Shown here one piece after another: positions 19,083 through 35,722 of a stretch of DNA of 64,000 nucleotides. Position 1 is the first letter of the stretch. Each line of letters opens with the position of its first letter. The notes beneath the pieces are model-generated. The model did not search any database and was not told the DNA's origin. It saw only the letters and a program-made list of their open reading frames with translations. Both the position numbers and the translations under genes were made by a program. The DNA is taken from the NCBI GenBank assembly GCA_045545855.1, contig JAZQBR010000203.1, positions 1,264 through 65,263 of the forward strand, in the 5' to 3' direction. This DNA is from Kiritimatiellia bacterium (GTDB taxonomy: Bacteria > Verrucomicrobiota > Kiritimatiellia > RFP12 > UBA1067).

Positions 19083-19850
19083 TTAGTGACGGTGCAATAC
19101 CCGCACTCTCGTAAACTCATATACCAATATCCATGCCGCGCGGGGAACACACCAGAGGTCGCGCTTTAGGACCCTCCATCCGCCCGTCAACATCCTCCAC
19201 AGCCAGCAGATGCCGTATTTGTGAACCCACTGCGGAACCGGCTTCTGCGTTCCGGCGTGAAAATCGAATGCCGCGCCAACGGGCAGAACAGCAGCCGCAT
19301 TGAACTCGCCCAAATGACGAGCGCACCACTTCTCCTGCTTCGGGCTGCCAAGCGCGACCCAGAGAAAATCGCACTCCATATTTTTCGGCACTTTAGGATC
19401 GGGCGAATACTCAGGAGCGAATGTCCCGACGATTTTCACACCGGTAAATCTCGCCTCCATGTTTGCCTTCAATTTCGCCAATGTCTCTTCATTCGTACCG
19501 CAAAATGCGTGCCGCCAACCACGGCCAATGCCGTATTTCATAGCCTTCTCGAAAAATACGGGACCGATGACGCGTCCCGGCAACTTGCCACCGCTTATCG
19601 CCGCCAACTTGACCATGACGATTCCATCCGACATGACGGCATCCGCCTTGCGATAGGCAGCAGCCAACTCCTCGTCCCGCCATCCATGCGCCAATCCATT
19701 CGCATCGCAGAAGCACACCAACCTACAATCCCCTTTTCGTGTATTTAGTGGTTCCATACTCCGCCACGAATCCATCTCCGCGAGCAGCGACTCATAGCCA
19801 ACTGCTGCCATGTCCCAATAGCGAGTTTTTACTTTCTCAATCATAAACAA
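19083..19850 (-). CDS. WecB/TagA/CpsF family glycosyltransferase (GT26; N-acetylmannosaminyl/glucosyl transferase-like)
   Basis: Signature LWVALGSPKQEKW and overall length 255 aa. Confidence 0.7.
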   Translation of the reverse strand: MFMIEKVKTRYWDMAAVGYESLLAEMDSWRSMEPLNTRKGDCRLVCFCDANGLAHGWRDEELAAAYRKADAVMSDGIVMVKLAAISGGKLPGRVIGPVFFEKAMKYGIGRGWRHAFCGTNEETLAKLKANMEARFTGVKIVGTFAPEYSPDPKVPKNMECDFLWVALGSPKQEKWCARHLGEFNAAAVLPVGAAFDFHAGTQKPVPQWVHKYGICWLWRMLTGGWRVLKRDLWCVPRAAWILVYEFTRVRVLHRH

Positions 19851-19946
19851 TGAATAGGGAATATAAGCCGATATCGATTGCGCATCAAATACGCAATCAA
19901 CACGAGCTTCAGCTCAATATATTACAGGAAACTTAGTGCTGTATCA

Positions 19947-20633
19947 TCATCTACGCCGCCAAGACTTAGTCTCAACAAACGGCGCTTTGATTATCTTTTC
20001 CACCAACGGATAAATACCGGCATAATGCGAAGCGTTCAGACATTCGGGGAATTGGCCATGCGTTGCAGCCCATGCCTTGGCTCGCCTAATTGCAACCTCT
20101 GTTTGCGTCATCTTCCCTACATCGAACTGTGCTCCGCTCTTGTGATCATACTTCGGCATCAACTTGTGCAACAGACCATGCAGTTCATGCCTATCGAGAG
20201 GGAAGTTGTCCATTTTAGAACCATCCTCTGTGCAGAGGACTCCCCAGATTTCTATACACGGCGACATGAACGCCACATGGATACGATAAAAAACATCACG
20301 CGATTCGCATCTAGCTATATCGCGGACCTTGCAATCATCATCGCATCTTTCCGGGCACTTCGTCAAAACCGACCTGACCTCCAACATCTCCTTAGCCTTC
20401 GCATCGTGGTCGAAAACAACCCATATTTCCGCATTGGGATTATGACGCAAGTCCTTGGCAACTTCGACAGCAAACCTCAAAGCTCGTTCCAACAGGACCA
20501 CGGGCGACGAGACGGATGGCTTCTGCACAATCCTAATGTCGCGATTCTTCGCCAAAGCCTGCAAGTAGCCCAGCTCCGTCTTGCCCTCATGAAAGAGGTA
20601 GATGACAGGCGAAACAGCATAATCATTCGCCAT
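19947..20633 (-). CDS. RloB-like protein (AbiLii-like partner of AAA_21 ATPase)
   Basis: N-terminal VIYLFHEGKTELGYLQAL resembles the RloB ilvcEGekTEpnYf motif. Overlaps the 3' end of the upstream ATPase gene. Internal ATG at 20633. Confidence 0.5.
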   Translation of the reverse strand: MANDYAVSPVIYLFHEGKTELGYLQALAKNRDIRIVQKPSVSSPVVLLERALRFAVEVAKDLRHNPNAEIWVVFDHDAKAKEMLEVRSVLTKCPERCDDDCKVRDIARCESRDVFYRIHVAFMSPCIEIWGVLCTEDGSKMDNFPLDRHELHGLLHKLMPKYDHKSGAQFDVGKMTQTEVAIRRAKAWAATHGQFPECLNASHYAGIYPLVEKIIKAPFVETKSWRRR

Positions 20634-21900
20634 ACACCATCTCCCCTCCCAAGCTAGGCAACGCGCCATACAACCCCTGCAGATAGCCCTTCTCTAGATT
20701 CTTGTCGTGCCTTGGCTGAAACTGGTAAAGCGAATAGAGGTCTGACGAACCATCAACACGCTTCTCGGCGAACCAAATCTCATCGGTCCGCCAAATGTCG
20801 TGCGTCATCAGGTTTGTATCATGCATGGTTATCACAAGTTGTGCGCCATCGGCCCTGCGTTCCATGAAAGACTTAAGGAGGTACTTCATCAATACAGGAT
20901 GAATATGACAATCAGCCTCGTCTATAAACCATGTTCCAGTGCCACGATGCAACTGATACAGCATCGGCGAGAGATGGATCAACCGCACAGTCCCGTCAGA
21001 TTCGGACTCCGCCCGCAACGGAACGCCATTGTGCTGCAGGCGAAATTCCTCACCACTAATTCCGTTGGCATCCTTTTTAATCAAATAAAATCCTCGGCTA
21101 ATGCCCAATACACGAGCACCATCCCCTTTGAAAGGATTCATATTGAATATAATCTCGGCTTCCTTGCTGGACAAAGGCTCCCACGAGAGATCCGTGACGC
21201 CCAAGTCCGCACGCTTCAACAGCTCAAGCAGAAACGTCTTGAAGTCTTCTTGTTTGATAAAGGTGTAGAACGCCGCTGGATTCGGACGCGACTCCGTGCC
21301 TAACACGAACATTTGACTAAGCCCGACATAAGCCGACAGGATTACATCGGCCATCGCGATATCCAATTTGTTTTCCCTCAAACCATCGGAAATCAACTTA
21401 GGCAGATATAGCAGATTATCCGCCAATGTCCGTTGCCTATACCACTCAGCCTTATCAAGTCGCTCATCAAGTCCAAGGCGAGTTCCATTCTCCCTGTCGA
21501 ACAGAATTGATTCCCGTTCGCCACTGACCTGCCAAAGGGTTTCCCTCTTGACCGCAAGTCCATCCGTAGCGACTGCATACCTGAACATCAAGCCTTCATT
21601 GGAAAAAACAATGTCGAATCTCATTTCCGGTCTAATAGATTCAGACAAAGCAAACTGCATCCCACGCACTACAGAGCAATCGCCACGAAAAACCATCTGC
21701 TGAAATAAATCGACAGCCTTAAGGAGATTGGACTTGCCAGATGCATTAGCACCATATATTGCAGCCCCTCGCAAGACTGAAATACCATTCACATCGCGAA
21801 TATGGTTCTCATGCCGCGAAGTCTTGCGACCAGCCTCCATTGAGAAAGAGACAGGCGCATCAAACGACAAGAAGTTCTCGATTGTGAGATTTATAAGCAT
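20623..21900 (-). CDS. AAA_21/ABC-type ATPase (AbiLi/RloA-like)
   Basis: Walker A GANASGKSN, Walker B/D-loop WFIDEADCHIHP, H-loop ITMHDTNLM. 425 aa. Confidence 0.7.
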   Translation of the reverse strand: MLINLTIENFLSFDAPVSFSMEAGRKTSRHENHIRDVNGISVLRGAAIYGANASGKSNLLKAVDLFQQMVFRGDCSVVRGMQFALSESIRPEMRFDIVFSNEGLMFRYAVATDGLAVKRETLWQVSGERESILFDRENGTRLGLDERLDKAEWYRQRTLADNLLYLPKLISDGLRENKLDIAMADVILSAYVGLSQMFVLGTESRPNPAAFYTFIKQEDFKTFLLELLKRADLGVTDLSWEPLSSKEAEIIFNMNPFKGDGARVLGISRGFYLIKKDANGISGEEFRLQHNGVPLRAESESDGTVRLIHLSPMLYQLHRGTGTWFIDEADCHIHPVLMKYLLKSFMERRADGAQLVITMHDTNLMTHDIWRTDEIWFAEKRVDGSSDLYSLYQFQPRHDKNLEKGYLQGLYGALPSLGGEMVYGE

Positions 21901-22028
21901 CTTCTACCTCCAACGGCGTGTATTATACCATATCTCACTCACCCAACGCAATAGAACTTGTGAAAAAATCTCATAATCATATCTACCCGCAGAAAACTCG
22001 CCAATAGCAAAATACCAATAACTACCCC

Positions 22029-22844
22029 TCACCTAAACCACTTATAGCCGTAATAGCCGATGTACTCGTGGATGAACGAGTTATTGCGGGCGAAGGCGTC
22101 GAAGCTCGGCAACAGACCACGCCATTTGAAAGGTTCATCCTTCCACGGCAATGCCTGATAATCCGTCGCGGCCGGGATGCACTCTATCTCAGGCGCATAC
22201 TTTTTGAACATGTACAAGCTTCGTTTCATGTGACATGCGCTCGTCACCAACAATATACTTGGCTTCTTTGCGACCTCTGCTCCTTTGAGCCTCTGCGTTA
22301 CAATTTCTCCAACAAATTTTGCGTTCTCCTCGGTGTTCACCGCCTTGTCCTCCAACACAACAGCCTCACGCGGAACACCCAAATCCACAAGCAATTTCAC
22401 ATCCCCGAACTCGGCACCGACATTGCTTGAAATGACGATAGGCGCTTTCCCAGCCTTCCAGAGCCTTGCCGCATGCCATGGCCGGTCCGCCGCCTCATTC
22501 ATGCAGGCGTAGGGATAGCATTCGTCACCCCAAACGCCTCCGCCCATCAAAACAATCGCATCAGCTTTCGTCATATCCTCCGCCAACTGTACAGGGTAAT
22601 CCTCTTCAAGCGGCAACGCCAGCCAACCGCCGACAATCGGCATCGACCAAAACCAGAACCATGACAAGGCCGTTCCCAAAGTCCACATCACTGCTTTACG
22701 CTTTTTGAGCAGGGCAAACGTCTGCCCCAAGGCAACAGCCACAATGCCTACAAACAGCGGATTGGCGACAAAACCGACAATCTTATTTATCGTGTTCACA
22801 ATTTCATGCAACCATGTAGAACATGTAGAACGTATAGAAACCAA
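22029..22844 (-). CDS. YdcF/ElyC-like DUF218 family protein (start uncertain)
   Basis: ILLVTSACHMKRSLYMF and VLMGGGVW motifs of DUF218 with an N-terminal TM segment. The listed N-terminal residues STCSTWLHE are encoded by a CATGTAGAA repeat arm, so the true start is probably downstream. Confidence 0.55.
   Translation of the reverse strand: MVSIRSTCSTWLHEIVNTINKIVGFVANPLFVGIVAVALGQTFALLKKRKAVMWTLGTALSWFWFWSMPIVGGWLALPLEEDYPVQLAEDMTKADAIVLMGGGVWGDECYPYACMNEAADRPWHAARLWKAGKAPIVISSNVGAEFGDVKLLVDLGVPREAVVLEDKAVNTEENAKFVGEIVTQRLKGAEVAKKPSILLVTSACHMKRSLYMFKKYAPEIECIPAATDYQALPWKDEPFKWRGLLPSFDAFARNNSFIHEYIGYYGYKWFR
22812..22840. repeat. Solo arm of TGTAGAA-unit element (ccatgtagaacatgtagaacgtatagaa)
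   Basis: Three tandem (C/A)TGTAGAAC units with no inverted partner nearby, between the GT4 stop and the ydcF-like gene. Confidence 0.5.
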
Positions 22845-22864
22845 TCACCAACCACCAAAGACTA

Positions 22865-24130
22865 TCAACTGACCACTTCCCCGTAAATCTCCATTAGTCG
22901 CTTGTAGTTCGCTTCTTCTGAATATTTAGTTTCAGCCTCGTGCTTTGCCGCTGCACATACTTCGTCATAATCTGAACGCGACAGAAACCGCTTTATCGCC
23001 GCCGCACATGCCTCTGCATTGCCAGCCTCAAACACTTCACCGAAACGGTTTTCCTGCACGATCTCTGGCAAGGCACCAAGATTGCTCGTCACAACAGGCG
23101 TTCCCTCTAGCATTGATTCCACGACCGTCAATCCAAATGTCTCCCACCATTCACTTGGAAGGACAGTAGCCTTGGATTTAGCCATAAGACGGAGTACTTC
23201 AGCGGCTGATTTCAGGCCGACAAACTCAACATCCCCCCCGTCGGCAAGTTTCTCAAGCTCCTGCCGATCAACACCATCGCCGACTATTATCAGCTTGAGG
23301 TTATTTAACCATGTAGAACATGTAGGAGCATGTAGATGTTCTTTATGACAAATAATCTTGAAAGCCTTTATAAGAGTTTCGACACCTTTCTCTTTCGATA
23401 GCCGCCCAACATAAACTATCTGATCTTTCTTAAGGATGGGGGATGAGGGATGTGGGATGGGGGATGGGGGTGTTATTCTCATCCCTCCTATCTCATCTCG
23501 CATCCCTATCACAAAATTGCCCTTCACAGCAATTTTGTGTTCTGGCCAGCCATATTCAACCATCTTCCGCTTCTGGAACTCGCTCAGTACAATAAACCTT
23601 GAAACCCACTTTGGCAACCGCCTTCGATAAAGCGCAATGTTGATTGCAAGCGGCAATGTTGCCGCCAGACTTCCGCGATAGCAACGATACTTGATTCCAT
23701 CACATACACATCTCTTATCCAAACACAGCGAGCACACTTTCCCGTCCCTCGTCGGCACGCCTGCCGCACAAGCCATTCGATAGTTGTGTAGAGTCATCAC
23801 GACCTGCGCATACTTGCTCGCCGCACGAACCGCCAACGGGCTGATAAGCGGGAAGGTGTTATGGAAGTGAACGACATCCGGCTTGAATTCTCTACATTTC
23901 TTCGCAACCGCCCGCGCCGCGAACGGATTGCCGACCGTACACAGCGCCCCTTTGATTTTACCCAAGATCCTTTTAATTGCATTGCCGCACCGTATTTCAT
24001 CACTATGCCGGGCATATACAGCGACCTCATGTCCATGCTTCTCCAGCATGGCCTTCTCTGCCTCGAAGACCTTGTTCTCGCCTGACGGCGCCGATGAGCC
24101 ATAGTAGTTATGGACAAGGAGAATCCTCAT
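22865..24130 (-). CDS. Glycosyltransferase, GT4 family, carrying two in-frame repeat-element insertions
   Basis: MRILLVHNYYGSSAPSGENKVFE... N-domain and ...ETFGLTVVESMLEGTPVVTSNLGALPEIV C-domain. The segments HLHAPTCSTWLNN and ITPPSPIPHPSSPIL are encoded by repeat elements at 23301..23337 and 23435..23510. Confidence 0.7.
   Translation of the reverse strand: MRILLVHNYYGSSAPSGENKVFEAEKAMLEKHGHEVAVYARHSDEIRCGNAIKRILGKIKGALCTVGNPFAARAVAKKCREFKPDVVHFHNTFPLISPLAVRAASKYAQVVMTLHNYRMACAAGVPTRDGKVCSLCLDKRCVCDGIKYRCYRGSLAATLPLAINIALYRRRLPKWVSRFIVLSEFQKRKMVEYGWPEHKIAVKGNFVIGMRDEIGGMRITPPSPIPHPSSPILKKDQIVYVGRLSKEKGVETLIKAFKIICHKEHLHAPTCSTWLNNLKLIIVGDGVDRQELEKLADGGDVEFVGLKSAAEVLRLMAKSKATVLPSEWWETFGLTVVESMLEGTPVVTSNLGALPEIVQENRFGEVFEAGNAEACAAAIKRFLSRSDYDEVCAAAKHEAETKYSEEANYKRLMEIYGEVVS
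23301..23337. repeat. TGTAGAA-unit element arm inside GT4 CDS (tatttaaccatgtagaacatgtaggagcatgtagatg)
   Basis: Shares the TTTAACCATGTAGAAC terminus with the elements at 28984 and 34190 and is read in-frame. Confidence 0.55.
23435..23510. repeat. G-rich palindromic element (GGGATGAGGGATGTGGGATGGGGGATGGGGG ... CTCATCCCTCC...CATCCCTATC) inside GT4 CDS
   Basis: Tandem GGGATG units on the left and complementary CATCCC units on the right. Read in-frame (PPSPIPHPSSPI). Confidence 0.5.
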
Positions 24131-24600
24131 GTTTAATTAGCCGTGTAGAACGTGTAGATCGTGTAGAATTATGCGGTGATGGTACGACGCTCGAATTTAT
24201 AGGAACCAAAATTTACAAGAAGTCCAACAGGATGCCGCGTGATCTTCAAGTAGTTTATAATCTGGGCAAAGTGTTCAGGAGCAAACGTTTTAACGGCCTT
24301 AAGCTCAACTATCAAGCTATCATTTACAAACATGTCTACAAAATACTCCCCGACACAATATCCGTCCCTGTCGAACACTTTAAGCGGTTTTTGTCGTTCG
24401 ACTTTATAGCCCGCAATTACAAGCCTATGCTCCAAGGCCGCCTCATAAACCTTTTCCAGCAATCCCGTGCCAAAGTATTCATGCACCCCATACGCAATCT
24501 GACCTACATCAGCTGCCAGTTTCCTTAATTCATCAGCGCAACCATCCATACTTCCCACCTTCTGCACGTTTCTACACGTTCTACACGGTTAGAACCCTTC
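24131..24600. mobile_element. ~470-bp cassette bounded by inverted arrays of CGTGTAGAA units, carrying a GxxExxY gene
   Basis: Left terminus ttaattagCCGTGTAGAACGTGTAGATCGTGTAGAA (24133..24168). Right terminus cacgTTTCTACACGTTCTACACGGttagaacc (24561..24600) is its inverted complement. The left end abuts the GT4 start codon and the right end overlaps the 3' end of the kinase-like gene. Confidence 0.55.
24169..24549 (-). CDS. GxxExxY family protein (PD-(D/E)XK-like small protein)
   Basis: MDGCADELRKLAADVGQIAYGVHEYFGTGLLEKVYEAALEHRL... contains the GLLEKVY = GxxExxY motif. About 126 aa from ATG at 24549 (the ORF track begins at an upstream GTG). Confidence 0.65.
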   Translation of the reverse strand: MDGCADELRKLAADVGQIAYGVHEYFGTGLLEKVYEAALEHRLVIAGYKVERQKPLKVFDRDGYCVGEYFVDMFVNDSLIVELKAVKTFAPEHFAQIINYLKITRHPVGLLVNFGSYKFERRTITA

Positions 24601-25465
24601 CCCTCCTTCTACACGGATATGCATCAATTCCCAACAGCCCTTTGACCTGCTTCTTAAACCAGGATTCATCCTTGCCCTCGACCCACTGCCCTGCGTCTTC
24701 CCAATCCCAGACATACAATTTGCCATCCACGATAGAACAGTTCCACGGAGCAAAGTCGCCGTGCGACAAACCCGCCCTTCTCAATTCGTCCAGAAATACA
24801 TAATGCTCCTTCTGCATCCGAACAGGGCTTTTGCCTTTCGGCAATACCGACTGCGCACTCCATGTCCATGCCCCATCATGCCCGACATCGCCTATGGCAA
24901 CAGGTACTTGCGCACACAAAGGCGTCATCATCAGCCTTTTCAGCACGTCCACCTCTTCCCTGATCGCCTCTGCCGCCTTATCTGTCCTTCCCAACTTCAA
25001 TATGATTTCATTTGTGTTTAACACAGAGTCACAGAGACGCAGAGGATTGGGAGAGTCAGAAGAAATCTCTGTGCCTCTGTGCCTCTGTGTTAAAACCTTC
25101 ACCAGCACCGTCAACTTGGACTTCGCCGAATCGTTTCCCATATAAAGCGTTATCCACTCTATCTTCTTTGCGAACTTTGCGTTCTTTGCGGCTAAATCAT
25201 CTATCGCTTTCCCTATTACCTCGTGTCCATCCAGTTCATCAAACCGCTTGATTGGCCCATGAACCATCTTCTCGATGGGCAGCCATGCGAACCATCCCAG
25301 AACCTTTACAGCCCACTTCAGCACCTTGCGCCCTGGCGTGTGCATCGCCAGCCCTGCCCGCTTGCTTGCGGCAGATGAAAGGTCAATCCACACGCGCGGT
25401 TTCGGAGACGGAAGGCCAAGGAATCTGTGCATAGATATTTTCATGTGCACCTCATGATACAACAT
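24581..25465 (-). CDS. Phosphotransferase-family kinase-like protein (APH/choline-kinase fold)
   Basis: Brenner motif LSHGDFAPWN and DWE motif VWDWEDAG. An in-frame palindromic element lies at 25019..25092. The C-terminus overlaps the cassette TIR. Confidence 0.5.
   Translation of the reverse strand: MLYHEVHMKISMHRFLGLPSPKPRVWIDLSSAASKRAGLAMHTPGRKVLKWAVKVLGWFAWLPIEKMVHGPIKRFDELDGHEVIGKAIDDLAAKNAKFAKKIEWITLYMGNDSAKSKLTVLVKVLTQRHRGTEISSDSPNPLRLCDSVLNTNEIILKLGRTDKAAEAIREEVDVLKRLMMTPLCAQVPVAIGDVGHDGAWTWSAQSVLPKGKSPVRMQKEHYVFLDELRRAGLSHGDFAPWNCSIVDGKLYVWDWEDAGQWVEGKDESWFKKQVKGLLGIDAYPCRRRGRVLTV
25019..25092. repeat. Palindromic element built from CACAGAG units (cacagagtcacagagacgcagagg ... cctctgtgcctctgtg) inside CDS
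   Basis: Tandem 7-mers on the left, their complement on the right, and a ~25-bp loop. Translated in-frame within the kinase-like protein. Confidence 0.5.
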
Positions 25466-26390
25466 GCTTTAATCCCATTTTGAACAACCCACAAGAATTC
25501 CGTCTACCAATATCCAAAACGAGGCAAATCAAGTATGTAATCACCGATGTCGCACAGAACGCCGCCAAAATCCCCCAACCTTGTTTTTCGACAAGGCACA
25601 ACTCCAATCGCGACATCAAGGATAGGCCTCCAGAAGTGATGTGAAGAAGATACACCGCAAATGCTGATGGCGCAAGAAATAACACTATTCGTTCCATTGT
25701 CGATGGCATCTTCAACCGCCTAAAGAACTCAAAGGCGAAACAGGAAACGACAAACGCCGGGATCCACCAGTACCACCAGAATCCGGCCAGCATCGCTATC
25801 ACACATATCGGCAGCATCCAGATGGCGTTGCGCATCGTGCAGAAACGTCCCAAGTCCAATGACTTGTATAGCCGCACTGCTATATAAATACCGACAAGTG
25901 AAAGGAATGTGCATCCATCGAGTCCGCGCGGCGACGGAATCCAATCCCTGACATAAGGTATTGCACACATAACACCCCACGCATAAACAGCGAACAATAC
26001 AGGGGCTGACAAGATAAAAATCGTGCGCCCAACTTTACCGGCAAATGCGGCATCAATAAGTGGAGCAAGCATCATAAGCAACAGATAAGCCCACAGGAAC
26101 CAATAGCCGCAAATGCCTTTAATGGCATATAATGCCCCCGCCCCCCCTGCAATGTTTGACACAATAGCACACCAGATGCAGAGCGCGACCATATTCAGAC
26201 ACTTACGCACGTTGAACTTCACACCGAAATATCCAGATATAAACACAAACCCACATACGCACCAGTCAAGAATTGTCCAATGCGAACCGTCTTGTGGATA
26301 TGCACACTGCACTGCAGCATGCATGGCGACAATGCCAAACATCATCAAGAGCCGCATAAGCTCAAGCCCTGCGTTACGTTTCCCGTTCAT
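25452..26390 (-). CDS. Acyltransferase family 3 membrane protein (O-acyltransferase)
   Basis: N-terminal LELMRLLMMFGIVAMHA and a C-terminal SAFAVYLLH-type block, with about 10 TM helices. Confidence 0.7.
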   Translation of the reverse strand: MNGKRNAGLELMRLLMMFGIVAMHAAVQCAYPQDGSHWTILDWCVCGFVFISGYFGVKFNVRKCLNMVALCIWCAIVSNIAGGAGALYAIKGICGYWFLWAYLLLMMLAPLIDAAFAGKVGRTIFILSAPVLFAVYAWGVMCAIPYVRDWIPSPRGLDGCTFLSLVGIYIAVRLYKSLDLGRFCTMRNAIWMLPICVIAMLAGFWWYWWIPAFVVSCFAFEFFRRLKMPSTMERIVLFLAPSAFAVYLLHITSGGLSLMSRLELCLVEKQGWGILAAFCATSVITYLICLVLDIGRRNSCGLFKMGLKHVVS

Positions 26391-26417
26391 TTACGACCTC
26401 CGCATATATCTCATTAA

Positions 26418-26666
26418 TTAAAGCGCCGCAGTTCGCCCATGTGTATTGCGCTTTGATGCGTGCTTGCCCAGTTCCGCCTTGTGTTTTGAGTATCTCGAAA
26501 TCACGAAAATAACGCCCAAGCACCGCAACGAGGCCGTCAACAGAATCCGAATTGCCGCATCAACATTCACAGGCACGGTCATTCCGCAAAACGCAAGCCC
26601 AAATCCCGTCGCATCGCCATGCATCCACAGAATCATCGACTGGCAATGGATACCGACAACCATCAA
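26418..26666 (-). other. Possible N-terminal fragment of an acyltransferase-3 paralogue (remnant)
   Basis: MMVVGIHCQSMILW... resembles the N-terminus of the acyltransferase at 32861..33907 (LLVVAIHCQSMAPW). Only 82 aa between two acyltransferase genes. Confidence 0.2.
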
Positions 26667-26725
26667 TGCGCATGCAAAGGCCGCCGCACCAAGACGCTTG
26701 CTTGTTTCTACGTCGCCTTCATTTG

Positions 26726-27692
26726 CTAAATCAGTCTGAACATCGTCTTATAGTCGTATGCACAATCACAGAATGTCTGACTTAAGAATCTCGCTGCACA
26801 GCGCGCCAGCCACGAAACGGCAAGAGATGCAATAAAACCGCAAATATAGCACAATGGGAAATACGAGGTAAACATGAATGTCTTTGCGAGCCAGCCGACG
26901 AGATACATCTCCAGTGAAAGTCCTCCTACGAACATCACAAGAAAATTGACGACTGGATGTCTCATTGCACGAATGCAGAAATCCGACATGCAAAGCCTAT
27001 ATAGGCCCCAAACGCCAACCAAAAGCGGCACGCCCATTAGAATCTGCAATCTGGCAATTAGCTGGACTCGACCTGCCAGATAATATATTGCATAAAATAG
27101 CACAATCCCCCCCCCCCCCGAATAAAAGCGGCAAAGAGATTGTTCTTTCGACCTCGTCTTTTCTCTGTGCCATATATGCGCCCTCTATGAAAAACACAAA
27201 GAACAGCAAGTATTTCAAACTGTTATCGCCAAAGAGCCATGCACCACAGTCAACATCCTGACATCCCCATCCGAATGCATATGCTATTAATGTCATCCCC
27301 AAAGAAATCCAAACCAGCAACCCAAGCCGATTTGACATCAATCTAACTATAAAATAATAAACACCATAATAAACAAGCAAACACGTCACAAACCAACCAC
27401 TCCCGGCAAGCGCAAACGCAACCGAACAGCCAAGGCCCAGAAAACCCTTAACGAACGCCGCAACCAAGCAGGTTGGCCACAGTCTAGCCAGCCTACGCTT
27501 CATCCATAGATCAAAGCGGACCATCCTCCCTAATTGGCAGAGATAACCAGAAACGAAATAGAACAGTGCGCATCCAATACCACCGCCCGTGGCCAGGAAA
27601 GAGTATTTTCCATAGTAAGGCCCAGCCAAGTGATTGAATATCATCATGGTGGCAATGAACTTAAGGATATCTATACCTACTATTCTATTCAT
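26726..27692 (-). pseudogene. Acyltransferase family 3 gene split by a frameshift at a poly(C)13 tract (candidate phase-variable gene)
   Basis: The N-terminal part (ORF 26997..27692: MNRIVGIDILKFIATMMIFNHL...LFGGGGD) and the C-terminal part (ORF 26726..27103: LFYAIYYLAGRV...) overlap in different frames across C13 at 27107..27119. A 12-C or 15-C tract fuses them into a ~315-aa protein matching the 312-aa paralogue. Confidence 0.6.
27107..27119. repeat. Homopolymeric C13 (G13 on coding strand) tract
   Basis: cacaatCCCCCCCCCCCCCgaataaaag, read directly. Confidence 0.8.
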
Positions 27693-27768
27693 AGTCGTTT
27701 CAATTCGTTTAGTACCTTTAGCAAAATCGGCAAAACCTTTCTTTGCTCAAACACTCCGCTCCATGCGA

Positions 27769-28980
27769 TTACAATACCCTCCTAATATTGCTATAATCGC
27801 AGGAATCAACTCCGATTTCACACAAAACAGTCGAATCCACGCCCCACAATTTACGTGCCTCTCTTTGGTTTTCCCCAGTGGCGACAATCAAGCGATTTGT
27901 TTCGGCGGCACGTCTTGCTGCCATTCGAGGACGCAGAAGGAAATGAGAATGACACCAGTTTATTATATTCCTTGCAGCAAATTCAAGCACACCAAACATA
28001 CCCATAAGGGGCAAGAGCCGCCAAGCAGTATAGCCCAGTCCACCGATAGGCCCCCAGGCAAAAGGGACTTTAAGTTTCCAAAGATAACCCGGCTCGCGAA
28101 AGCCCACCATATTCAACTGATGCACAAGATCGAATCCAACAATTTTGTGCAAATCACACGCTTTCTTATATGCACGCCATTGCCAGACGCGATAGAACCA
28201 ATAGTAGCTTGGGGGCCATATCTTGCGAAGCAACCGCGCTCTTGGCTTGCGAATGAATGTCCAGTGGACGTTCTGCATTTCGTCGGGATGATCGGCAAGA
28301 TATTTTTCAATATCCGGACGCCACTTCTCTTCTTCGACAATTGCCCACACTTCGTTCTCCTTGGCAATCATCTTTAGGAAATGCCACCCCATGCCCGGCT
28401 CCGACCCCCTGTATGGGGAACAGGCGTAAACTGAAACCAAAACTTTTTTGCCGCCACCGCCATAAATATCTTTCAAGACTTTTGCTTTTTCCGTCCAAAG
28501 ATACCGCTTGGCCTTTTCAATTGCGCCCCTTGACAATTTTTCACGCAATTCCCGATTCTTCAACCTGCAAATTGCCTTTCCGAACCCGGCAATCACTTCT
28601 CTGGGGAGCCCAATCGGGATTTTTATTCCGCAAGTATCATCAACTACATCTGAAAAGCCGCAGTGGTCGAGGCAGATGACAGGCTTACCCGCAGACAACG
28701 CTTCGATCAGAACCGTAGAGGTCAAATCCCTTAGACTTGTAATTACAAAGACATCTGAGTCCGCGACTACTTTCTGCGCTTCGGCCTTCGGCAGCCAACC
28801 ATGCCACGTGATTTTGTCGTTGACGCCAAGCCGCGACGCCAAACGCTGATAATACTTGCGCAACTTGCCGTCACCCAGCACATCAACCCGTATAGAACTG
28901 TTTTCGATACCGGCAACGGCATTCTCAAGAACAGACAAAGCCTTGCCGCGCGTATATTGTCCTGACCAAGCAATCTTCAT
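27769..28980 (-). CDS. GT4-like protein with inverted domain order (C-terminal Rossmann domain first, N-terminal domain second); possibly a rearranged gene
   Basis: The first ~160 aa carry C-domain motifs (VDVLGDG...DVFVITSLRDLTSTVLIEALSAGKPVICLDHCG). After GGGGKK comes an N-domain (KVLVSVYACSPYRGSEPGMGWHF...FDLVHQLN...IVATGENQREARKLWGVDS). Confidence 0.45.
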   Translation of the reverse strand: MKIAWSGQYTRGKALSVLENAVAGIENSSIRVDVLGDGKLRKYYQRLASRLGVNDKITWHGWLPKAEAQKVVADSDVFVITSLRDLTSTVLIEALSAGKPVICLDHCGFSDVVDDTCGIKIPIGLPREVIAGFGKAICRLKNRELREKLSRGAIEKAKRYLWTEKAKVLKDIYGGGGKKVLVSVYACSPYRGSEPGMGWHFLKMIAKENEVWAIVEEEKWRPDIEKYLADHPDEMQNVHWTFIRKPRARLLRKIWPPSYYWFYRVWQWRAYKKACDLHKIVGFDLVHQLNMVGFREPGYLWKLKVPFAWGPIGGLGYTAWRLLPLMGMFGVLEFAARNIINWCHSHFLLRPRMAARRAAETNRLIVATGENQREARKLWGVDSTVLCEIGVDSCDYSNIRRVL

Positions 28981-28983
28981 TTT

Positions 28984-29228
28984 ATTTAACCATGTAGAGC
29001 GTGTAAAGTTATGCCGTAATTGTGCGACGCTTTAATTTGCACGAACCAAAGTTTACGAGAAGACCTGCAGCGTTATGAAGAGTCGATTCATAAGCCTTTT
29101 CAAATAAGTCATTCTCAAAATATTCGTATACATCATACGCCACTTGCCCTACTCCCGAAGCGAGTTCTCTCAATTCATCTACTTCATCCATGCACCACCT
29201 CCACTCTACACGATCTACACGGCTATAC
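28984..29228. mobile_element. Degenerate second copy of the CGTGTAGAA-TIR cassette with a decayed GxxExxY gene
   Basis: Termini tttatttaaccATGTAGAGCGTGTAaag (28984..29008) and cacctccactCTACACGATCTACACGGctatac (29195..29226). The internal sequence is homologous to 24165..24330 but carries a deletion. Confidence 0.5.
29009..29191 (-). pseudogene. GxxExxY gene remnant (internal deletion)
   Basis: MDEVDELRELASGVGQVAYDVYEYFENDLFEKAYESTLHN...AGLLVNFGSCKLKRRTITA parallels the intact copy (…VGLLVNFGSYKFERRTITA) but lacks ~35 central residues. The listed ORF 29009..29305 reads through the flank. Confidence 0.5.
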
Positions 29229-30569
29229 ATACCTTTCCTCCATTCGTCCCATAATGAATGCAAGCGCAGCATCGACGCTTCCTTGCAGCAACATTGTCGT
29301 GTCAATCCATACTGCTCGCCTATTGCCGTCGCAAAACTTCTTCAAGTCCGTTACTTGCCGCCGCACTTCTTCCAACGACGTTTCCGGCTTGCGCGCATAT
29401 ATCTTTTCCGGGTCGCCGCCAAGGCATAAAATCAAGTCCGGCTTTGGTATGAACCACGAAAAGAAGCGCGCCATGCCAGTCGGCAGCTTGACGGCGCACC
29501 GTCTGGGATCGATCATATACTCGTAATAGTAGCGGTCGCAAATGACTATAGTAGGACGCTTCACAAGCCACGGGAATATTTTGACATAATAGCCAAGCGT
29601 ATAGTCGATGTAGTAATAGAAGAATCTAAACACCGACGCAATCCAGCCCGACGTCTTGCCTCCATGCGGATTGGTGACCGGTCCGATCATCGCGGGTTTC
29701 CCCGCCAACCGCGCCAGACTCGGCAAAAGCCCTGGGCGCAGATGGCGATATTCGACAGGATGGTGCATCATCTGATACAGCACGGGCGTCACTTTCTCGA
29801 TAAGCGTCGATTTGCCGCTGCCATCCGTCCCCAGAAACGCAACACAATATCCGGGATATTTGAGAAGCCGTCTATAGCGTTGCTTGATGTTGTTCAATTT
29901 TATTCTTGCAAGCGACAGCCAATGGAATCCGGCAATCTGCCGTATCCAAAGCGCACGGACAAGTCGTTTTGAATCGCGGAAGATCTCCTTGTCCGAACAT
30001 TCCCCTGAAAGCAGCTTCTCCACAAGCGCCCATCCCTTTGCGCCGTAGCACCCAATCATAGCCGCCTTCACGCCATTGGGATTCGCCGCATAAGCCGCCC
30101 TCGCCCGTGGATAATAATCTTTCTTGGTCCGACGGTTCGGCATAATCTCCTTGATGAAACTCGCCACATCGGAAAGCCCGCCAAGTCTGTAAAACGAATC
30201 TTTCTCCAACACCCGCTCCGAAAATGCTCTGGCGGAATCCATATACGGAATGCCAAAATACATAAAGCCGGGGAAGAGGTCGATGTGAAGCCCCCACCAC
30301 GTTCCGTCCGCATGCCGCCCGCCGAGGCAGGTAATCGTCGCCTCCACCGTGTACTTTACGGTAAATCCGCCATTGTATTTTTTCGCTATTTCATCTGCAG
30401 TGGCGAGAACCTTCCCGACCTCGCACGGCCCGTCGGCGAACAGATCGAGATCGCTGCCGCCAAGCGATTCCGGCAGCGTTTCGTTGTTGCGCATCACGGC
30501 GTACCGGACGCCGCGCTCCTTCAGCACCGCAAAGAAATCAAGCAAAAATAGGGTTTCTGGTGTTTTCAT
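29223..30569 (-). CDS. Two-domain protein with a C-terminal P-loop NTP-binding domain (nucleotide/sugar kinase-like), function unknown
   Basis: Walker A FLGTDGSGKSTL at aa ~245. The N-terminal ~200 aa contain GGSDLDLFADG (a possible nucleotidyltransferase-like GS...D.D motif). 448 aa, in the GT operon. Confidence 0.45.
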   Translation of the reverse strand: MKTPETLFLLDFFAVLKERGVRYAVMRNNETLPESLGGSDLDLFADGPCEVGKVLATADEIAKKYNGGFTVKYTVEATITCLGGRHADGTWWGLHIDLFPGFMYFGIPYMDSARAFSERVLEKDSFYRLGGLSDVASFIKEIMPNRRTKKDYYPRARAAYAANPNGVKAAMIGCYGAKGWALVEKLLSGECSDKEIFRDSKRLVRALWIRQIAGFHWLSLARIKLNNIKQRYRRLLKYPGYCVAFLGTDGSGKSTLIEKVTPVLYQMMHHPVEYRHLRPGLLPSLARLAGKPAMIGPVTNPHGGKTSGWIASVFRFFYYYIDYTLGYYVKIFPWLVKRPTIVICDRYYYEYMIDPRRCAVKLPTGMARFFSWFIPKPDLILCLGGDPEKIYARKPETSLEEVRRQVTDLKKFCDGNRRAVWIDTTMLLQGSVDAALAFIMGRMEERYV

Positions 30570-31657
30570 CTACTCTCCTTGACCAATCTCTCAACCGACA
30601 ACCTCAGGTCATATTTGAGCAACGATTCGTTGCTACGGGCAGGCAGACGGTCAATGGCCGCCTTGAAGTCAACCATATCGTTACAAGCAAAAACAGTACC
30701 GCTTATGCCATCCTCTATCATAACCGCCGCGCCCAAATGGCTGGCGACCACACACGGAGTTCCCCACTGCAAAGCCTCTGCGACAACTGCTCCGAATGTT
30801 TCTGAATGACTGCACAATACAAGACCGTCCGCCATTGCCATCATCGCGTAGAGGGAATCACCCTCCTTCCTGCCAGCGAACACCACCCGATCATCAAGTT
30901 TCAACGCGGCTACCATCGCTTTTAATTCCGTATCCAATACTCCGTCGCCAACTAAAACAAGTCCCGTTGTTTTAGGTTGCTCTCGCATCTGCTCTATTAG
31001 CCAAGGCAGATTCTTGACTTTCGCAAAGCGCCCTACGAACACAAGTACACGGTTCCATACCTTGGGGCAGTTCGCTTCTCGCCATGCACGCCCCGCCGCA
31101 TAGATTTTGTCTGCGTTCTTTCGCATTGTCGCCGTATCATGGATTATGGGCACGACAGAGTAGTTGTTGGTGGTTAGTCGATAGTCGTCGGTTGATAGAG
31201 AGCGATAAGCGTCAGCGGCGGCTTGACTGGGAACGATTATCTTTTCGACATTTCGCAGAACCCAATCGCGCATGATACGTCGCAATCCTCTCCGTGACCT
31301 AATCTGTTCGGCGCTGTCATCCATGCTCGTCCATATTTTGGCGCTAACGAGCCCAAGCTTCTTCAACAGAACCAGTTCAAGCGTGAGCGGGCTTGCTTCG
31401 TAGGCAAGAATGATGTCTGGACATTCACGACGGACAATCCCAAGGATGCCAGTGCGGATGCATCGTCCGCGTATGCAAACGCCGTTTGTCAAATGCTCAT
31501 ACGGCACTCTAAGCCTTTCCAGCAATGCTTTCTGGTCGAACTTCTGAGTCTGCAAATTCTCCTGAAGGAATACCATTTTCAATTCCGCCAGCTCACCGAG
31601 CAGATTGAAGAAATCAACCCGGTATGGCGCAAGAGCAGGATGGAAGCAGATAATCTT
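30566..31657 (-). CDS. Glycosyltransferase, GT4 family
   Basis: Starts at MKIICFHPALAPYRVDFF (ATG at 31657, overlapping the upstream stop). C-terminal ETFGAVVAEALQWGTPCVVASHLGAAVMIEDGISG. Confidence 0.65.
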   Translation of the reverse strand, partial: KIICFHPALAPYRVDFFNLLGELAELKMVFLQENLQTQKFDQKALLERLRVPYEHLTNGVCIRGRCIRTGILGIVRRECPDIILAYEASPLTLELVLLKKLGLVSAKIWTSMDDSAEQIRSRRGLRRIMRDWVLRNVEKIIVPSQAAADAYRSLSTDDYRLTTNNYSVVPIIHDTATMRKNADKIYAAGRAWREANCPKVWNRVLVFVGRFAKVKNLPWLIEQMREQPKTTGLVLVGDGVLDTELKAMVAALKLDDRVVFAGRKEGDSLYAMMAMADGLVLCSHSETFGAVVAEALQWGTPCVVASHLGAAVMIEDGISGTVFACNDMVDFKAAIDRLPARSNESLLKYDLRLSVERLVKESR

Positions 31658-32859
31658 CATTGACCGCGAACTACTCCTTCCATCCATTGATACATTCCGC
31701 CGACAAGAACATCCCACTGCTTGCGGGCAAGGAACCACTTCTTTATCGTCCCGAACTTCGCTCGTTTACGCTCTTCGTCCCAAGCAAGCACTTCACGGAT
31801 CTTGGCGACATAATCTTCCGCCGTGTCGCCTTCCGCAAACTCCACGACCTCGGCATAGTCAGGCGACAAGCTTTCAAGTCGCGTACTGACGACCGGGCGA
31901 CCGAAACTAAGGTAGTGCGGCAGCTTGCTTGGGTAGTTTAATATGTTGTCGGGATGATGGGGATCGCGTACATTCAGCAATACATCCGCGTTACGGCATA
32001 TGCGGTTCATCTCTTCCTCTTCCACGAAGCCTGGCAACTCAACGTATGGGTTGTCGCCAAACAACTTCGCAAGGATACGGCAACTGGACTTGCCGCAGAA
32101 TATGAACTTTATGTCGGGCGCAGCCATTTTGCGGACAACCTCAACCATGAAATCAAGTCCGCGCCACTGATCGAGCGCTCCTGTATGGACAAGTGTCTTA
32201 GTCGTTAGCCGCTGGTCGTTAGCCGTTAGCTTGTGGTCATCAACACCACTATCGACTAACGACTGACGACTATCGACTTCTTCTCCTCCACACCAACCAT
32301 CCGCCCCGCCGTCCATATGGTATTTTGGCACATCAACAGGGCAATGCGTATGCACCCACCACGAAAGCGAGACGATGCCGCTTGAATATTGCCCAGCCCG
32401 TTTCACCCAACCCCAGTCATCCTTGCGCGGATCGTCGCCATCAAGAATTATGGGGAAACACGGAACACCCATGCCGCGCAGGATTTTCATTGTGCGCACA
32501 AGGTAGGGCAAATGGCAATTGTAAAATATGGCCACATCGATTTTCTTCTGGCGAGCGATTTTCCTTGCCTCGACCGGGTATCGCCATACATACCACCAGT
32601 CGCGGAAATATTTGATTACAGGATATGAAAGTGCCACGCAATCCCACCCGTCAGGGTAGAGACGCTTATCGTATCCACGCCACAACACCTTGCCCTTCGG
32701 CCATGACACTTCGTATGTGTGGGTGAGTGCCGTCACATTGGATATCTTCGAGAGTGCAGTCAGGAACCCTCGCGCCCATTTCGCCGCCGCAAGCGAGACC
32801 GGGCGGTTCATCTGCGCCCATTCGCTGTCGTTCGGGCCTATGTAGAGTATGTTCAGCAT
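31657..32859 (-). CDS. Glycosyltransferase, GT4 family, with in-frame palindromic insertion
   Basis: MLNILYIGPNDSEW... and a GT4 C-domain (VLLNVRDPHHPDNILNYPSKLPHYLSFGRPVV). The segment VDSRQSLVDSGVDDHKLTANDQRLT is encoded by the GTCGTTAG-unit element at 32198..32278. Confidence 0.65.
   Translation of the reverse strand: MLNILYIGPNDSEWAQMNRPVSLAAAKWARGFLTALSKISNVTALTHTYEVSWPKGKVLWRGYDKRLYPDGWDCVALSYPVIKYFRDWWYVWRYPVEARKIARQKKIDVAIFYNCHLPYLVRTMKILRGMGVPCFPIILDGDDPRKDDWGWVKRAGQYSSGIVSLSWWVHTHCPVDVPKYHMDGGADGWCGGEEVDSRQSLVDSGVDDHKLTANDQRLTTKTLVHTGALDQWRGLDFMVEVVRKMAAPDIKFIFCGKSSCRILAKLFGDNPYVELPGFVEEEEMNRICRNADVLLNVRDPHHPDNILNYPSKLPHYLSFGRPVVSTRLESLSPDYAEVVEFAEGDTAEDYVAKIREVLAWDEERKRAKFGTIKKWFLARKQWDVLVGGMYQWMEGVVRGQ
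32198..32278. repeat. Palindromic element of GTCGTTAGCC units (tagtcgttagccgctggtcgttagccgttagc ... cgactaacgactgacgactatcgac) inside CDS
   Basis: Tandem units and their complements. A partial copy of the unit (accaacgactaacgacc) also occurs intergenically at about 49078..49100. Confidence 0.5.
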
Positions 32860-32860
32860 A

Positions 32861-33907
32861 TTACGCCCTTCCCCCTGTCAACAAATTGAATATCCTCGGC
32901 GAACAACGCTTTGAAAGGAGGCCGACAAGGAGCGCCCCCCCCATCCCAGACAAGATTTTAAGGAGATACATCGTCAACGTTTGCAGATGAAACGCCAGCC
33001 CAACCCGTAACGCCACGGAAATCATCAATGTGTGGATTGCATAGATAAAGAACGTTAATCCGACAAATCTCCTGCTCAATGGCGATACACGATCAACCAT
33101 TTGCAGATTGGCAAACACTGCACACACGCCAGAGAAGACAAGCACTTTGTCTGCAATGTCAAACGCCATTTTGTTGCGATACACGCCGAACAAGACCTTG
33201 CAAACAATACTTGTGCAGAATATGGCAAGCACAAGATGTCTTCTATCGACAAGTGTTTTTCGCAATTCTAAGAAACTGTCGGCATCGCGCATTCTGAATC
33301 CAACCCATGATCCAACTGCGAGCCACAAGAAATTACCTGCGGCAAGCGGCAACGGCAGATAGTACCAGAACGTGCCTATCCACCCGGCAAGGAAGACGCA
33401 AATCAATACCACCCCATGCAATTTGTTCCGCAATAACGGAAGAATCAGGGGCGCAGCAAGCACATATATGAAAACTGTCTGCAAATACCAGAACTGCATG
33501 CAGCCAAGGCGGACATATGGGTCATAACCAAAAATCTTCGCCATAATTGACAAACCTTCATGCAATTCCCCAGACAGAAGCGCAAGCGCAAGATAAATGG
33601 CGTTCCATAGAACGAATGGAACATACAGCGTGATGAGTCGCTTCCTTATTTCATTGGTAAACCATGTGAACCATCCATTGCCCGGATATCCCTTGACAAG
33701 GAAGAACCCCGTGATCGTGAAGAAGATCGGTACGGCTATTCGTGGAACCGTGTATGTCCCCAGAAAATAGAACGCCGCCTCCAATTTGCCGACAGGCATC
33801 TCCCCAGCGAACCACGGCGCCATAGACTGGCAATGGATCGCGACAACAAGCAATGCGCACAGGAAAGCCACCGTGCGCAGACGCTCGCTTGTCTTGGCGG
33901 ATATCAT
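32861..33907 (-). CDS. Acyltransferase family 3 membrane protein
   Basis: N-terminal RTVAFLCALLVVAIHCQSM, with about 10 TM helices. A homopolymeric G-run encodes MGG near the C-terminus. Confidence 0.7.
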   Translation of the reverse strand: MISAKTSERLRTVAFLCALLVVAIHCQSMAPWFAGEMPVGKLEAAFYFLGTYTVPRIAVPIFFTITGFFLVKGYPGNGWFTWFTNEIRKRLITLYVPFVLWNAIYLALALLSGELHEGLSIMAKIFGYDPYVRLGCMQFWYLQTVFIYVLAAPLILPLLRNKLHGVVLICVFLAGWIGTFWYYLPLPLAAGNFLWLAVGSWVGFRMRDADSFLELRKTLVDRRHLVLAIFCTSIVCKVLFGVYRNKMAFDIADKVLVFSGVCAVFANLQMVDRVSPLSRRFVGLTFFIYAIHTLMISVALRVGLAFHLQTLTMYLLKILSGMGGALLVGLLSKRCSPRIFNLLTGGRA

Positions 33908-35196
33908 TTGCCTCGCTCCTGTTTGACAACGTTTTCAAGCGCGGCAATGTAACGCTTCACGACAGCGGTCATCATGAATCGTTCTTTCACGTTCCTTACG
34001 GCATTGCCAGACATCTTTGCCCTCGCCGAATAATCAAGCATCAAGTTCTCGATGCATTCCGCCAACTTCTCTGGTCTTGTTACGTTGCATACGACACCGC
34101 CCGCAACGGATGATTCCGATCTTTCCTTTTCATTTAGCCGTGTAGAACAGGGAGAACATGAAGGATTTTCTACACGCTCTACATTTTCTACATGGTTAAA
34201 TCCATCGATTCCCAACACCCACGGCACCGCGCCACTCTTCTCGCCGCCGACGCACGGGACTCCATGCGCCATCGCCTCTATGAAAACCATGCCAAAACTC
34301 TCTTCCAAGGACGGACTGCAAAATACATCCGCCTCTTTCTGCAACGCTCGCCGTATCATCTCCGAAGAGCCATAACCTCGCAACTCTATGCACCCGGAAT
34401 CGATGAGACGACCCATGCCATTCTGCCGCATCCAAGGATCGGCACCGCGTTGATCCATATAATGTCCATACACCACCAGCCGCCATTCCGGGTGTCTCGC
34501 ATGGAGCAGCGCAAATGCCTTGAAAAGCGTCTTAGAGTTCTTGAGGCGACCCCACTGCGTGACACACAATATCGTCCGCGCTTCGAGGCGGATTTCAATC
34601 CTGCCGGCCTGGGCGGTTTCTTCCTTAATGGCATTTGGAATAATCTCCACCGGCTTGCGATAGAAGTTGAAGTTTCGCAGATCTTCCGCCATGTGCGGAG
34701 AAACGGTAGCCATGTGCTTGACATGTGGAAAAACAAAGAACTGTGAATATATCGCCTTGAAAAGCGATGCGGCATTGCGCATTGTCCATACGACCCGCCA
34801 AGGAGAGTCATGCGCCACAACAAGCGTTGGAACGCCACTTTTCAGAGCAGCACGTGCATACTGATATGTCCAGTTCGCCAGTATGACATCCGGCTTTGCC
34901 TTATGTATTTCGTCAACCATACATGACACTTCTTTTGAATAGAACGTCATGTATTGATAGCGGCAACGTCTTTCGGGAACAATCCTGATCTCCAGACGGC
35001 CAGCCGTATAGGTGGTTGCCGCGGAATGGTTCATGTCTGTGACGACTACAGAAACCTCATGCCCGGAATCAACCAATGCAGCGACCAGATCGCTTCCGTA
35101 GTTGAAATCCCATCTGACGGACGGCAATTGCCTGTCGAACTTGAATCGTTCTGCAAGACAAGACAGCGTGACACGCCCTAAAAACGCTATCTTCAT
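33904..35196 (-). CDS. Glycosyltransferase, GT4 family, with an in-frame miniature CGTGTAGAA-TIR element
   Basis: Starts at MKIAFLGRVTLSCL (ATG at 35196). C-domain ...ADVFCSPSLEESFGMVFIEAMAHGVPCVGGE... The segment GFNHVENVERVENPSCSPCSTRLNEKERSE is encoded by the element at 34133..34202. Confidence 0.65.
   Translation of the reverse strand: MKIAFLGRVTLSCLAERFKFDRQLPSVRWDFNYGSDLVAALVDSGHEVSVVVTDMNHSAATTYTAGRLEIRIVPERRCRYQYMTFYSKEVSCMVDEIHKAKPDVILANWTYQYARAALKSGVPTLVVAHDSPWRVVWTMRNAASLFKAIYSQFFVFPHVKHMATVSPHMAEDLRNFNFYRKPVEIIPNAIKEETAQAGRIEIRLEARTILCVTQWGRLKNSKTLFKAFALLHARHPEWRLVVYGHYMDQRGADPWMRQNGMGRLIDSGCIELRGYGSSEMIRRALQKEADVFCSPSLEESFGMVFIEAMAHGVPCVGGEKSGAVPWVLGIDGFNHVENVERVENPSCSPCSTRLNEKERSESSVAGGVVCNVTRPEKLAECIENLMLDYSARAKMSGNAVRNVKERFMMTAVVKRYIAALENVVKQERGK
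34133..34202. mobile_element. Miniature (~70 bp) cargo-less copy of the CGTGTAGAA-TIR element (MITE-like) inside a CDS
   Basis: tttagCCGTGTAGAACagggagaacatgaaggattTTCTACACGCTCTACATTTTCTACATGGTTAAAtcc. Both termini match those of the 24131 and 28984 cassettes, with only ~20 bp between arms. Confidence 0.55.
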
Positions 35197-35606: not shown

Positions 35607-35722
35607 CTTCTCGTCAGACGCGATTGCGGTAATTCGTCCAACGAAGTAGAAGGACAGCCACCTCGGCAGCACCACAAGCGTGATGAGCAATCCTTTATAT
35701 GCGTCTATCGAAGCATTCTTCT

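Follow-up and report, generated by a model that had tools for sequence, protein, structure and literature searches.

What is to be made of a gene that is broken exactly at a long homopolymer? The window analysed here, a stretch of 64,000 nucleotides of contig JAZQBR010000203.1 (positions 1,264 to 65,263; assembly GCA_045545855.1) from a Kiritimatiellia bacterium, contains a stand-alone acyltransferase-3 (AT3) gene, named here AT3-A, which occupies positions 26726..27692 on the minus strand and which is frameshifted as assembled at a run of 13 G residues on its coding strand. Such a gene might be dead, might have been misread, or might represent one state of a reversible switch. We favour the last of these possibilities, and assign a probability of about 0.5 to the reading that AT3-A is a functioning ON/OFF contingency gene and thereby a candidate for phase-variable O-acylation.

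Reading of the sequence and a script both gave exactly 13 C residues on the plus strand at positions 27107..27119, i.e. a G13 tract on the coding minus strand, which begins codon 192 and is read GGG GGG GGG GGG G. The open reading frame (ORF) that runs into the tract (26997..27692, minus strand) encodes a product of 231 amino acids (aa), designated P0001 (P numbers denote proteins in the protein search). It is made up of the 191 codons ahead of the tract, which cover transmembrane helices (TM) 1 to 6, followed by four glycines and 36 out-of-frame residues. Directly behind the tract, and in a different frame, a second ORF of 125 aa with a GTG start is present (26726..27103). The C-terminal 126 codons of AT3-A (26726..27106, minus strand), corresponding to TM7 to TM10, are open in the frame that is reached with 12 or 15 G residues; no stop codon is present in them and, the frameshift apart, the gene has no further lesion. 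When the tract was edited in silico from G10 to G16, a continuous protein was obtained at G12 (321 aa) and at G15 (322 aa), and G10, G11, G13, G14 and G16 all resulted in truncation at 210–232 aa. These results agree with an earlier reading of this DNA (the original prediction), according to which AT3-A is split exactly at the C13 run, where the frames of the 231-aa and 125-aa ORFs meet, and the restored junction reads LFGGGG-IVLFYAIYYLAGRV. That reading had allotted 190 codons to the N-terminal part, for which we count 191 ahead of the tract, and although removal of one C or addition of two does indeed restore a continuous protein, the G12 form is 321 aa long instead of the ∼315 aa envisaged.

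The tract stands out from the DNA around it. C13 is the sole homopolymer of at least 9 in the window, the next longest being a C8. In dinucleotide-preserving shuffles 0.13 C/G 10-mers were expected per window, and the observed number of 4 overlapping C/G 10-mer matches was reached in only one out of 100 shuffles. A first-order Markov estimate gives ∼0.005 runs of at least 13 in 189 kb of related DNA. Codon usage does not explain the four GGG codons of the tract either, because GGG accounts for only 24% of the glycine codons in 25 window genes, and because the Gly4 linker encoded by the gene located just upstream of AT3-A (27769..28980) is specified by GGC GGT GGC GGC. G/C runs of 9 or more are hypermutable.

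The repaired protein has the features of a complete AT3 enzyme. Residues 5–296 of the G12 form aligned to positions 2–324 of the 326 positions of profile PF01757 (Acyl_transf_3) with 65.4 bits (cut-off 31; E = 6e-18); this end-to-end match bears out the earlier assignment of the gene to the acyltransferase-3 family. The 231-aa OFF product covers only positions 2–209 of the same profile, and the 125-aa C-terminal ORF alone gave no match to PF01757 in the Pfam scan. As PF01757 is the sole Pfam match in the 321 aa and no SGNH domain is present, the architecture is AT3-only. AT3 domains contain ten transmembrane helices (PMC9833829). An AlphaFold model of the G12 protein, built on 18 homologues (predicted local distance difference test score, pLDDT, 84; predicted template modelling score, pTM, 0.86), contains ten long helices (residues 5–22, 36–54, 60–84, 100–119, 123–139, 159–176, 186–206, 216–234, 246–272 and 280–306), and the hydropathy segments of AT3-A agree with them. 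A Foldseek comparison of this model with the PDB gave no match at E ≤ 0.001, and was uninformative since no solved AT3 domain was returned.

Sequence motifs were examined as well. The R-X10-H motif in the first helix of AT3 proteins corresponds to Arg14 and His25 of OafB (PMC9833829). TM1 of AT3-A contains His21, within ...LKFIATMMIFNH..., preceded by the basic residue Lys11 at X9 spacing, as against an Arg at X10, and the pattern KFIATxxIxNH is conserved across the 18 AT3-A homologues. The RXXR motif at the cytoplasmic face of the third helix is present (K65-R66-R67-L-A-R70-L-W-P), with K65, R70 and P73 being invariant in the family alignment. The family-invariant residues are all kept on both sides of the tract, those of the C-terminal part being L258, L260, E261, Y263 and Q305. 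The OFF product lacks TM7 to TM10 and, with them, the invariant GGLSLEMYL motif that contains Glu261.

Comparison with orthologues gave information on the origin of the tract (related loci are numbered L001 to L011). AT3-A orthologues in loci L002/L003 (P0002) and in L001 show 59–68% identity; for the repaired L001 orthologue identity is 64% ahead of the tract and 56% behind it. The gene order is kept in L001, with a permuted glycosyltransferase gene (see below) upstream and an AT3 gene downstream of the AT3-A orthologue. At the position of the GGGG residues these orthologues have hydrophobic residues (LLFI, LLVI or LFIS), and distant homologues are hydrophobic there too; the tract is hence a derived feature. 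In the G12 form, exactly as many residues separate the conserved anchors QRKD and AGRV as in the orthologues. This conserved spacing suggests that the tract-bearing AT3-A evolved under length constraint, with G12 as its probable working state.

The mechanism that we propose for AT3-A is the following. The lineage would have gained a run of 12–13 G residues on the coding strand within the segment encoding TM7, and slipped-strand mispairing in replication would add single G residues to this run or remove them from it. With G12 or G15 the full ten-helix enzyme would be produced (ON); with G13, as assembled, and likewise with G11 or G14, translation would stop after TM6 and a short nonsense tail (OFF). 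A population would then contain cells with acylated and cells with non-acylated surface glycans, the two forms changing into each other at high frequency, and the majority that was sequenced, or the assembled consensus, would be in the OFF state. Judging from the gene cluster in which AT3-A lies, the most likely role of the enzyme is O-acylation of a sugar in the polysaccharide that this cluster produces. Slippage at the tract and its reversibility are inferred, as are an active G12 enzyme, the sugar that it acylates and any selective benefit, for example escape from phages or from immunity. By analogy with other AT3 enzymes, the product of AT3-A might affect a phage receptor and an antigenic determinant, a role that had been put forward in the original prediction.

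Long G tracts are not limited to AT3-A. Across ∼189 kb of polysaccharide-locus DNA from Kiritimatiellia, runs of at least 10 G/C were observed 4 times versus 0.28 expected (P ∼2e-4, analytic). G/C runs of at least 7 showed no overall enrichment (11 observed versus 16 expected). Every long run in these loci is located in an AT3 gene or in a gene for a family 4 glycosyltransferase (GT4), with the G residues on the sense strand. Since two of the loci, L004 and L005, come from related strains, the number of independent sites is about four. One site was found in three strains with different tract lengths and near-identical flanks. It is located in a GT4 gene of which the window has an intact copy (22865..24130, minus strand; 421 aa), and consists of a sense-strand G7 in the window (23233..23239), G8 in L005 (1061-1068) and G13 in L004 (9323-9335). 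Behind this GT4 tract, L004 and L005 have an incomplete second copy of the C-terminal half-domain and, after it, a separate 144-aa ORF with the real C-terminus. Another site lies in AT3-B, a second AT3 gene of the window (25452..26390, minus strand). Here the sequence is G7-C-G5 in the window (on the plus strand C5 at 26135..26139 and C7 at 26141..26147), G10TA in L005 and G5AG9 in L004, and it is in frame in all three.

Two further AT3 genes are split at G runs. In L007, a locus (JBJEWD010000020.1) from the independent metagenome-assembled genome (MAG) Kiritimatiellia bacterium LOHA06_bin.047, an AT3 gene other than AT3-A, starting at about position 2830, is split by a sense-strand G11 at 3604-3614. 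The tract reads G11-A-G4 and is positioned just ahead of an SYELYLTH motif; frame 0 ends ...ISRNVTGGGGGA*, the +1 frame goes on ...GLSSLSYELYLTH..., and G10 or G13 would restore the gene. The AT3-A orthologue of L001 (P0003, 231 aa), which is present on a rumen metagenome contig, is frameshifted at a G7 (L001:693-699) situated ∼8 codons upstream of the position of the window tract, and the gene is intact, with G5+T at this site, in two other contigs (L002:∼467-471). In L011 an AT3 gene (L011:3980-4960) is frameshifted near ...AKQQVAGYLFG*, a place with no homopolymer of at least 7 nearby; this gene is either a pseudogene or the result of an assembly error. The G tracts of the related loci are real, length-variable between strains, and clustered in AT3 and GT4 genes. 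A more far-reaching proposal, which we regard as possible and put forward only tentatively, would be that the Kiritimatiellia of rumen and gut, as a lineage, use sense-strand poly-G contingency switches across hypervariable polysaccharide loci, with several AT3 and GT4 genes per locus being affected, and that the G13 of the window is one such switch caught in the OFF state.

Various observations weigh against a functioning switch, and some of them favour the alternative that AT3-A is a plain pseudogene. According to this alternative, which we consider rather unlikely, a +1 slip inactivated the gene or the run grew after the function had been lost, and AT3-A would be decaying like the remnant next to it; the tract would be mutable, but no switch would be selected. 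The segment is partly decaying, because right behind AT3-A, at 26418..26712 (minus strand), there is the dead remnant of another AT3 gene. Identified by a repeat search and tblastn, it comprises ∼90 N-terminal codons, is frameshifted near its start and truncated, and shows 49% identity over 91 aa to an L002 gene (tblastn E = 1e-25) and 73% identity at the DNA level to the 5′ end of the AT3-C gene described below (33801..33892). Its L002 counterpart, positioned after the AT3-A orthologue, is an intact gene of 352 aa. Moreover, Gly192-195, which are encoded by the tract, fall inside the predicted TM7 helix (residues 186–206), where every homologue is hydrophobic; judging from the model, the G12 form may be impaired by these four glycines. 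Phase-variable tracts are more usual near the 5′ end of a gene or in segments that encode loops. Also, other AT3 genes in the related loci are broken, some at a tract and some, those of L011 and P0015, in places where there is no long one; AT3 inactivation in these loci is therefore common and is not reversible in every case. Finally, the intact gene at the GT4 site is the one with the short run (G7). The longer runs, G8 and G13, are found in the version of L004 and L005 that is rearranged and partly pseudogenised, with an in-frame stop in L005, and the expansion of that tract may be neutral drift after inactivation instead of a maintained switch. On the other hand, AT3-A itself displays no second lesion in 321 codons and has retained every invariant residue, G12 gives back the spacing of the orthologues exactly, and independent MAGs alike have their long G runs concentrated in AT3 and GT4 genes. 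In addition, a single slip undoes the defect, and at G13 a "dead" and an "OFF" gene differ only in whether selection acts.

Two other explanations leave the gene intact or bypass the frameshift. The homopolymer may have been miscalled, or its length may be a consensus artefact; the true or majority length would then be 12 (or 15), and the gene would be intact with a run that is still hypermutable. A 13-base G/C run is hard for every sequencing platform, AT3-A is carried by one assembly only, and on a single, probably metagenome-assembled contig that was seen once a one-base error suffices. However, the four other G7-G8 coding runs are all in frame and the neighbouring genes are intact, which indicates that this assembly is not generally indel-prone; independent assemblies from other studies, one of them of a 2014-era sheep rumen data set, also contain G11 and G13 in AT3 and GT4 genes; and the flanks carry on the orthologous protein without loss of length, for which reason the tract cannot be an inserted artefact. 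We regard a miscall as improbable. Insertion of poly-G by two-colour Illumina chemistry was considered separately, and is ruled out by the length-conserved flanks and by the similar tracts in independent assemblies, one of them 2014-era. Alternatively, some functional enzyme might be made from the G13 allele without any change in the DNA, by slippage of RNA polymerase, by a +1 shift of tRNA-Gly on GGG-G in the ribosome, or by separate translation of the C-terminal part. A one-G slip in the mRNA, or +1 re-pairing on GGG GGG GGG GGG G-AUU, would land in the C-terminal frame, and the GTG at 27103, 3 nt past the G run, could serve as a start with the run acting as a Shine-Dalgarno-like element. 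Slippage on long homopolymers is well established for dnaX, insertion sequence (IS) elements and the poly-A genes of endosymbionts. Known transcriptional slippage, though, is efficient on A/T and not on G/C runs. At the AT3-A tract no stimulatory element was identified, such as a downstream structure or an A-site codon that is rare or a stop, and a split ten-TM enzyme would, to our knowledge, be unprecedented for AT3. We regard this route as very improbable, and retain slipped-strand switching of AT3-A as the preferred reading.

The surroundings of AT3-A accord with a role in surface modification. Pfam scans delineated a surface-polysaccharide biosynthesis cluster of ∼40 kb (19083..58441, minus strand) that encodes WecG, a DUF218 protein, about ten GT4/GT1 glycosyltransferases, three AT3 proteins, a Wzy-like polymerase, two pyruvyl transferases and a flippase-like protein. 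AT3-B (312 aa, PF01757) is intact, as the original prediction had it; the designation "paralogue next door" was too strong, since BLASTP comparison with AT3-A gave E = 0.08 and AT3-B is a distantly related member of the family. The third AT3 gene, AT3-C (32861..33907, minus strand; 348 aa), is likewise intact and as distant from AT3-A as AT3-B is. It contains, in frame and on the sense strand, a G8 (32935..32942) that is the second-longest homopolymer of the window. Each of the five window runs of at least 7 G/C lies in a polysaccharide gene with the G residues on its sense strand, but runs of 7 occur no more often than by chance. An NCBIfam scan assigned neither AT3-A nor AT3-B to a named subfamily. 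A scan for promoters and terminators around AT3-A gave results no richer than those of shuffled sequence and provided no evidence of an alternative regulatory element. A switch based on an invertible promoter was also considered and rejected, as there are no inverted repeats flanking a promoter.

In the product of the glycosyltransferase gene just upstream of AT3-A (27769..28980, minus strand), the GT-B halves have changed places, with the Glycos_transf_1 C-domain (residues 6–153) coming first and the Gly4 linker and an N-domain-like part after it. Full-length orthologues are present in L010 and L011 (63% identity), and the L007 homologue has the normal order; the gene apparently represents a conserved circular permutation. 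The idea that it marks a broken, rearranged locus was ruled out, given that the gene is full length in L010 and L011.

The cluster region contains several other elements of note. Defence-like genes are located in and around it (11807..12856, 16385..19054, 20623..21900, 44662..47074 and 50353..51684); the set includes Abi_2, a KAP-family NTPase, AAA_15/AAA_21 ATPases, one of which contains DUF3696, and a protein whose N-terminal domain is GmrSD. In the segment 24138..24591, a small PD-(D/E)XK_3 (GxxExxY) gene (24169..24567) is flanked by 21-nt inverted repeats composed of GTAGAAC(G/A)T units, and a decayed copy of this gene is found at 29009..29305. Solo repeats of the same type occur at 22797..22841, 23294..23324, 28975..29008, 29205..29225 and 34123..34201; some are intergenic, and others lie in frame inside glycosyltransferase genes, where they encode ...CSTWL... 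or ...NHVEHVE.... The gene with its repeats looks like a miniature mobile cassette that is colonising the polysaccharide locus. Another inverted repeat, of 28 nt and with CACAGAG-type units (25017..25094; 89% complementary, 22 nt between the arms), is in frame inside an APH-like kinase gene (24581..25465).

The host is an uncultured, apparently rumen-associated member of the Kiritimatiellia, which belong to the Planctomycetes-Verrucomicrobia-Chlamydiae (PVC) group. For the DUF218 neighbour, genes with 69–79% identity are present in MAGs that bear the name Kiritimatiellia bacterium and in one with the name uncultured Verrucomicrobia, and near-identical neighbour proteins (96–97% for DUF218) are encoded on ENA contigs with the sample labels SHIW14, XIEF21 and TONG22, which we take to be sheep and other ruminant metagenomes. 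Further copies of AT3-A were sought at several levels. Among 5.8 billion protein clusters none exceeded 68% identity, the only matches being its own 231-aa product and the 59–68% orthologues. None was found in a protein scan of the GTDB representative genomes, nor in JGI metagenomes when these were searched with the exact tract flanks separated by a variable gap and with the orthologue alignment. Exact look-ups of the window proteins showed that they are not on record. P0001 forms a one-member cluster, and the window proteins, most of which are sole members of their 90% clusters, all derive from one NCBI contig of 68,477 bp.

The arrangement described for AT3-A resembles several known systems. 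The capsule and lipooligosaccharide (LOS) loci of Campylobacter jejuni contain many G8-G11 runs in glycan-modifying genes, with lengths that vary between strains and within populations, a pattern similar to that of the Kiritimatiellia loci. In C. jejuni the poly-G variation is documented by population sequencing and by phenotypes, and has been linked to absent mismatch repair. Among the closest known systems is pglI of Neisseria meningitidis, an AT3 O-acetyltransferase of the pilin glycan that is switched ON and OFF by slippage at a poly-G within its ORF (PMC10425976, PMC11130364, PMC9558356). AT3-A likewise belongs to the AT3 family and has the poly-G in its ORF. PglI, however, is an AT3-SGNH fusion of a proteobacterial pathogen, whereas AT3-A is an AT3-only protein of 321 aa, without detectable orthology to PglI, of an uncultured rumen Kiritimatiellia member; and pglI is known to switch, from isolates as well as from paired samples of carriage and disease, whereas for AT3-A we infer switching. 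Other AT3-only enzymes include Oac, WbaK, Lag-1 and IcaC (PMC9558356). Of these, IcaC of Staphylococcus aureus modifies the exopolysaccharide poly-N-acetylglucosamine (PNAG), and its gene is subject to a slipped-strand switch at a repeat within the ORF (PMC4117637, PMC9558356). The icaC gene differs from AT3-A in having a tetranucleotide, TTTA, as its repeat unit and a Gram-positive host, and in that its switching was shown experimentally. The AT3 protein encoded by oafA of Haemophilus influenzae O-acetylates LOS and is phase variable via an intragenic repeat (PMC9558356). As with AT3-A, the first oafA sequence, in a reference genome, was a frameshifted one; the gene differs in having tetranucleotide repeats, in acting on the LOS inner core, and in its demonstrated role in serum resistance.

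Within the PVC superphylum, the genome paper of the gut commensal Akkermansia muciniphila described a (C)10 in the acyltransferase gene Amuc_2098 and a (G)8 in the capsule gene Amuc_1413, and proposed phase variation by slippage from the sequence (PMC3048395). The likeness to AT3-A consists in a long G/C run in an acyltransferase gene, as judged by the label "acyltransferase", of a PVC gut commensal. The Akkermansia genes, though, were described as tract-bearing and not as frameshifted, and Akkermansia belongs to the Verrucomicrobiota, as opposed to the Kiritimatiellia of the window host. We found no literature linking Kiritimatiellia with phase variation.

The mechanism proposed for AT3-A is in itself not new; the arrangement is the classical layout of a slippage switch, here in an unstudied lineage. 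Homopolymer slippage has been documented mainly in host-adapted pathogens, and within the PVC group we encountered it only as the sequence-based proposal for Akkermansia. For annotation, the results imply that frameshifted AT3 and glycosyltransferase genes in such MAGs should not be labelled pseudogenes by default, and that the length of their homopolymers is worth checking in the raw reads. If our reading of AT3-A is true, uncultured rumen Kiritimatiellia would diversify their surface polysaccharide by homopolymer slippage, and O-acylation would be a trait that varies and that bears on how phages adsorb in the rumen. If the tentative lineage-wide reading were true as well, an uncultured, non-pathogenic lineage of the PVC group would possess combinatorial surface-glycan variation.

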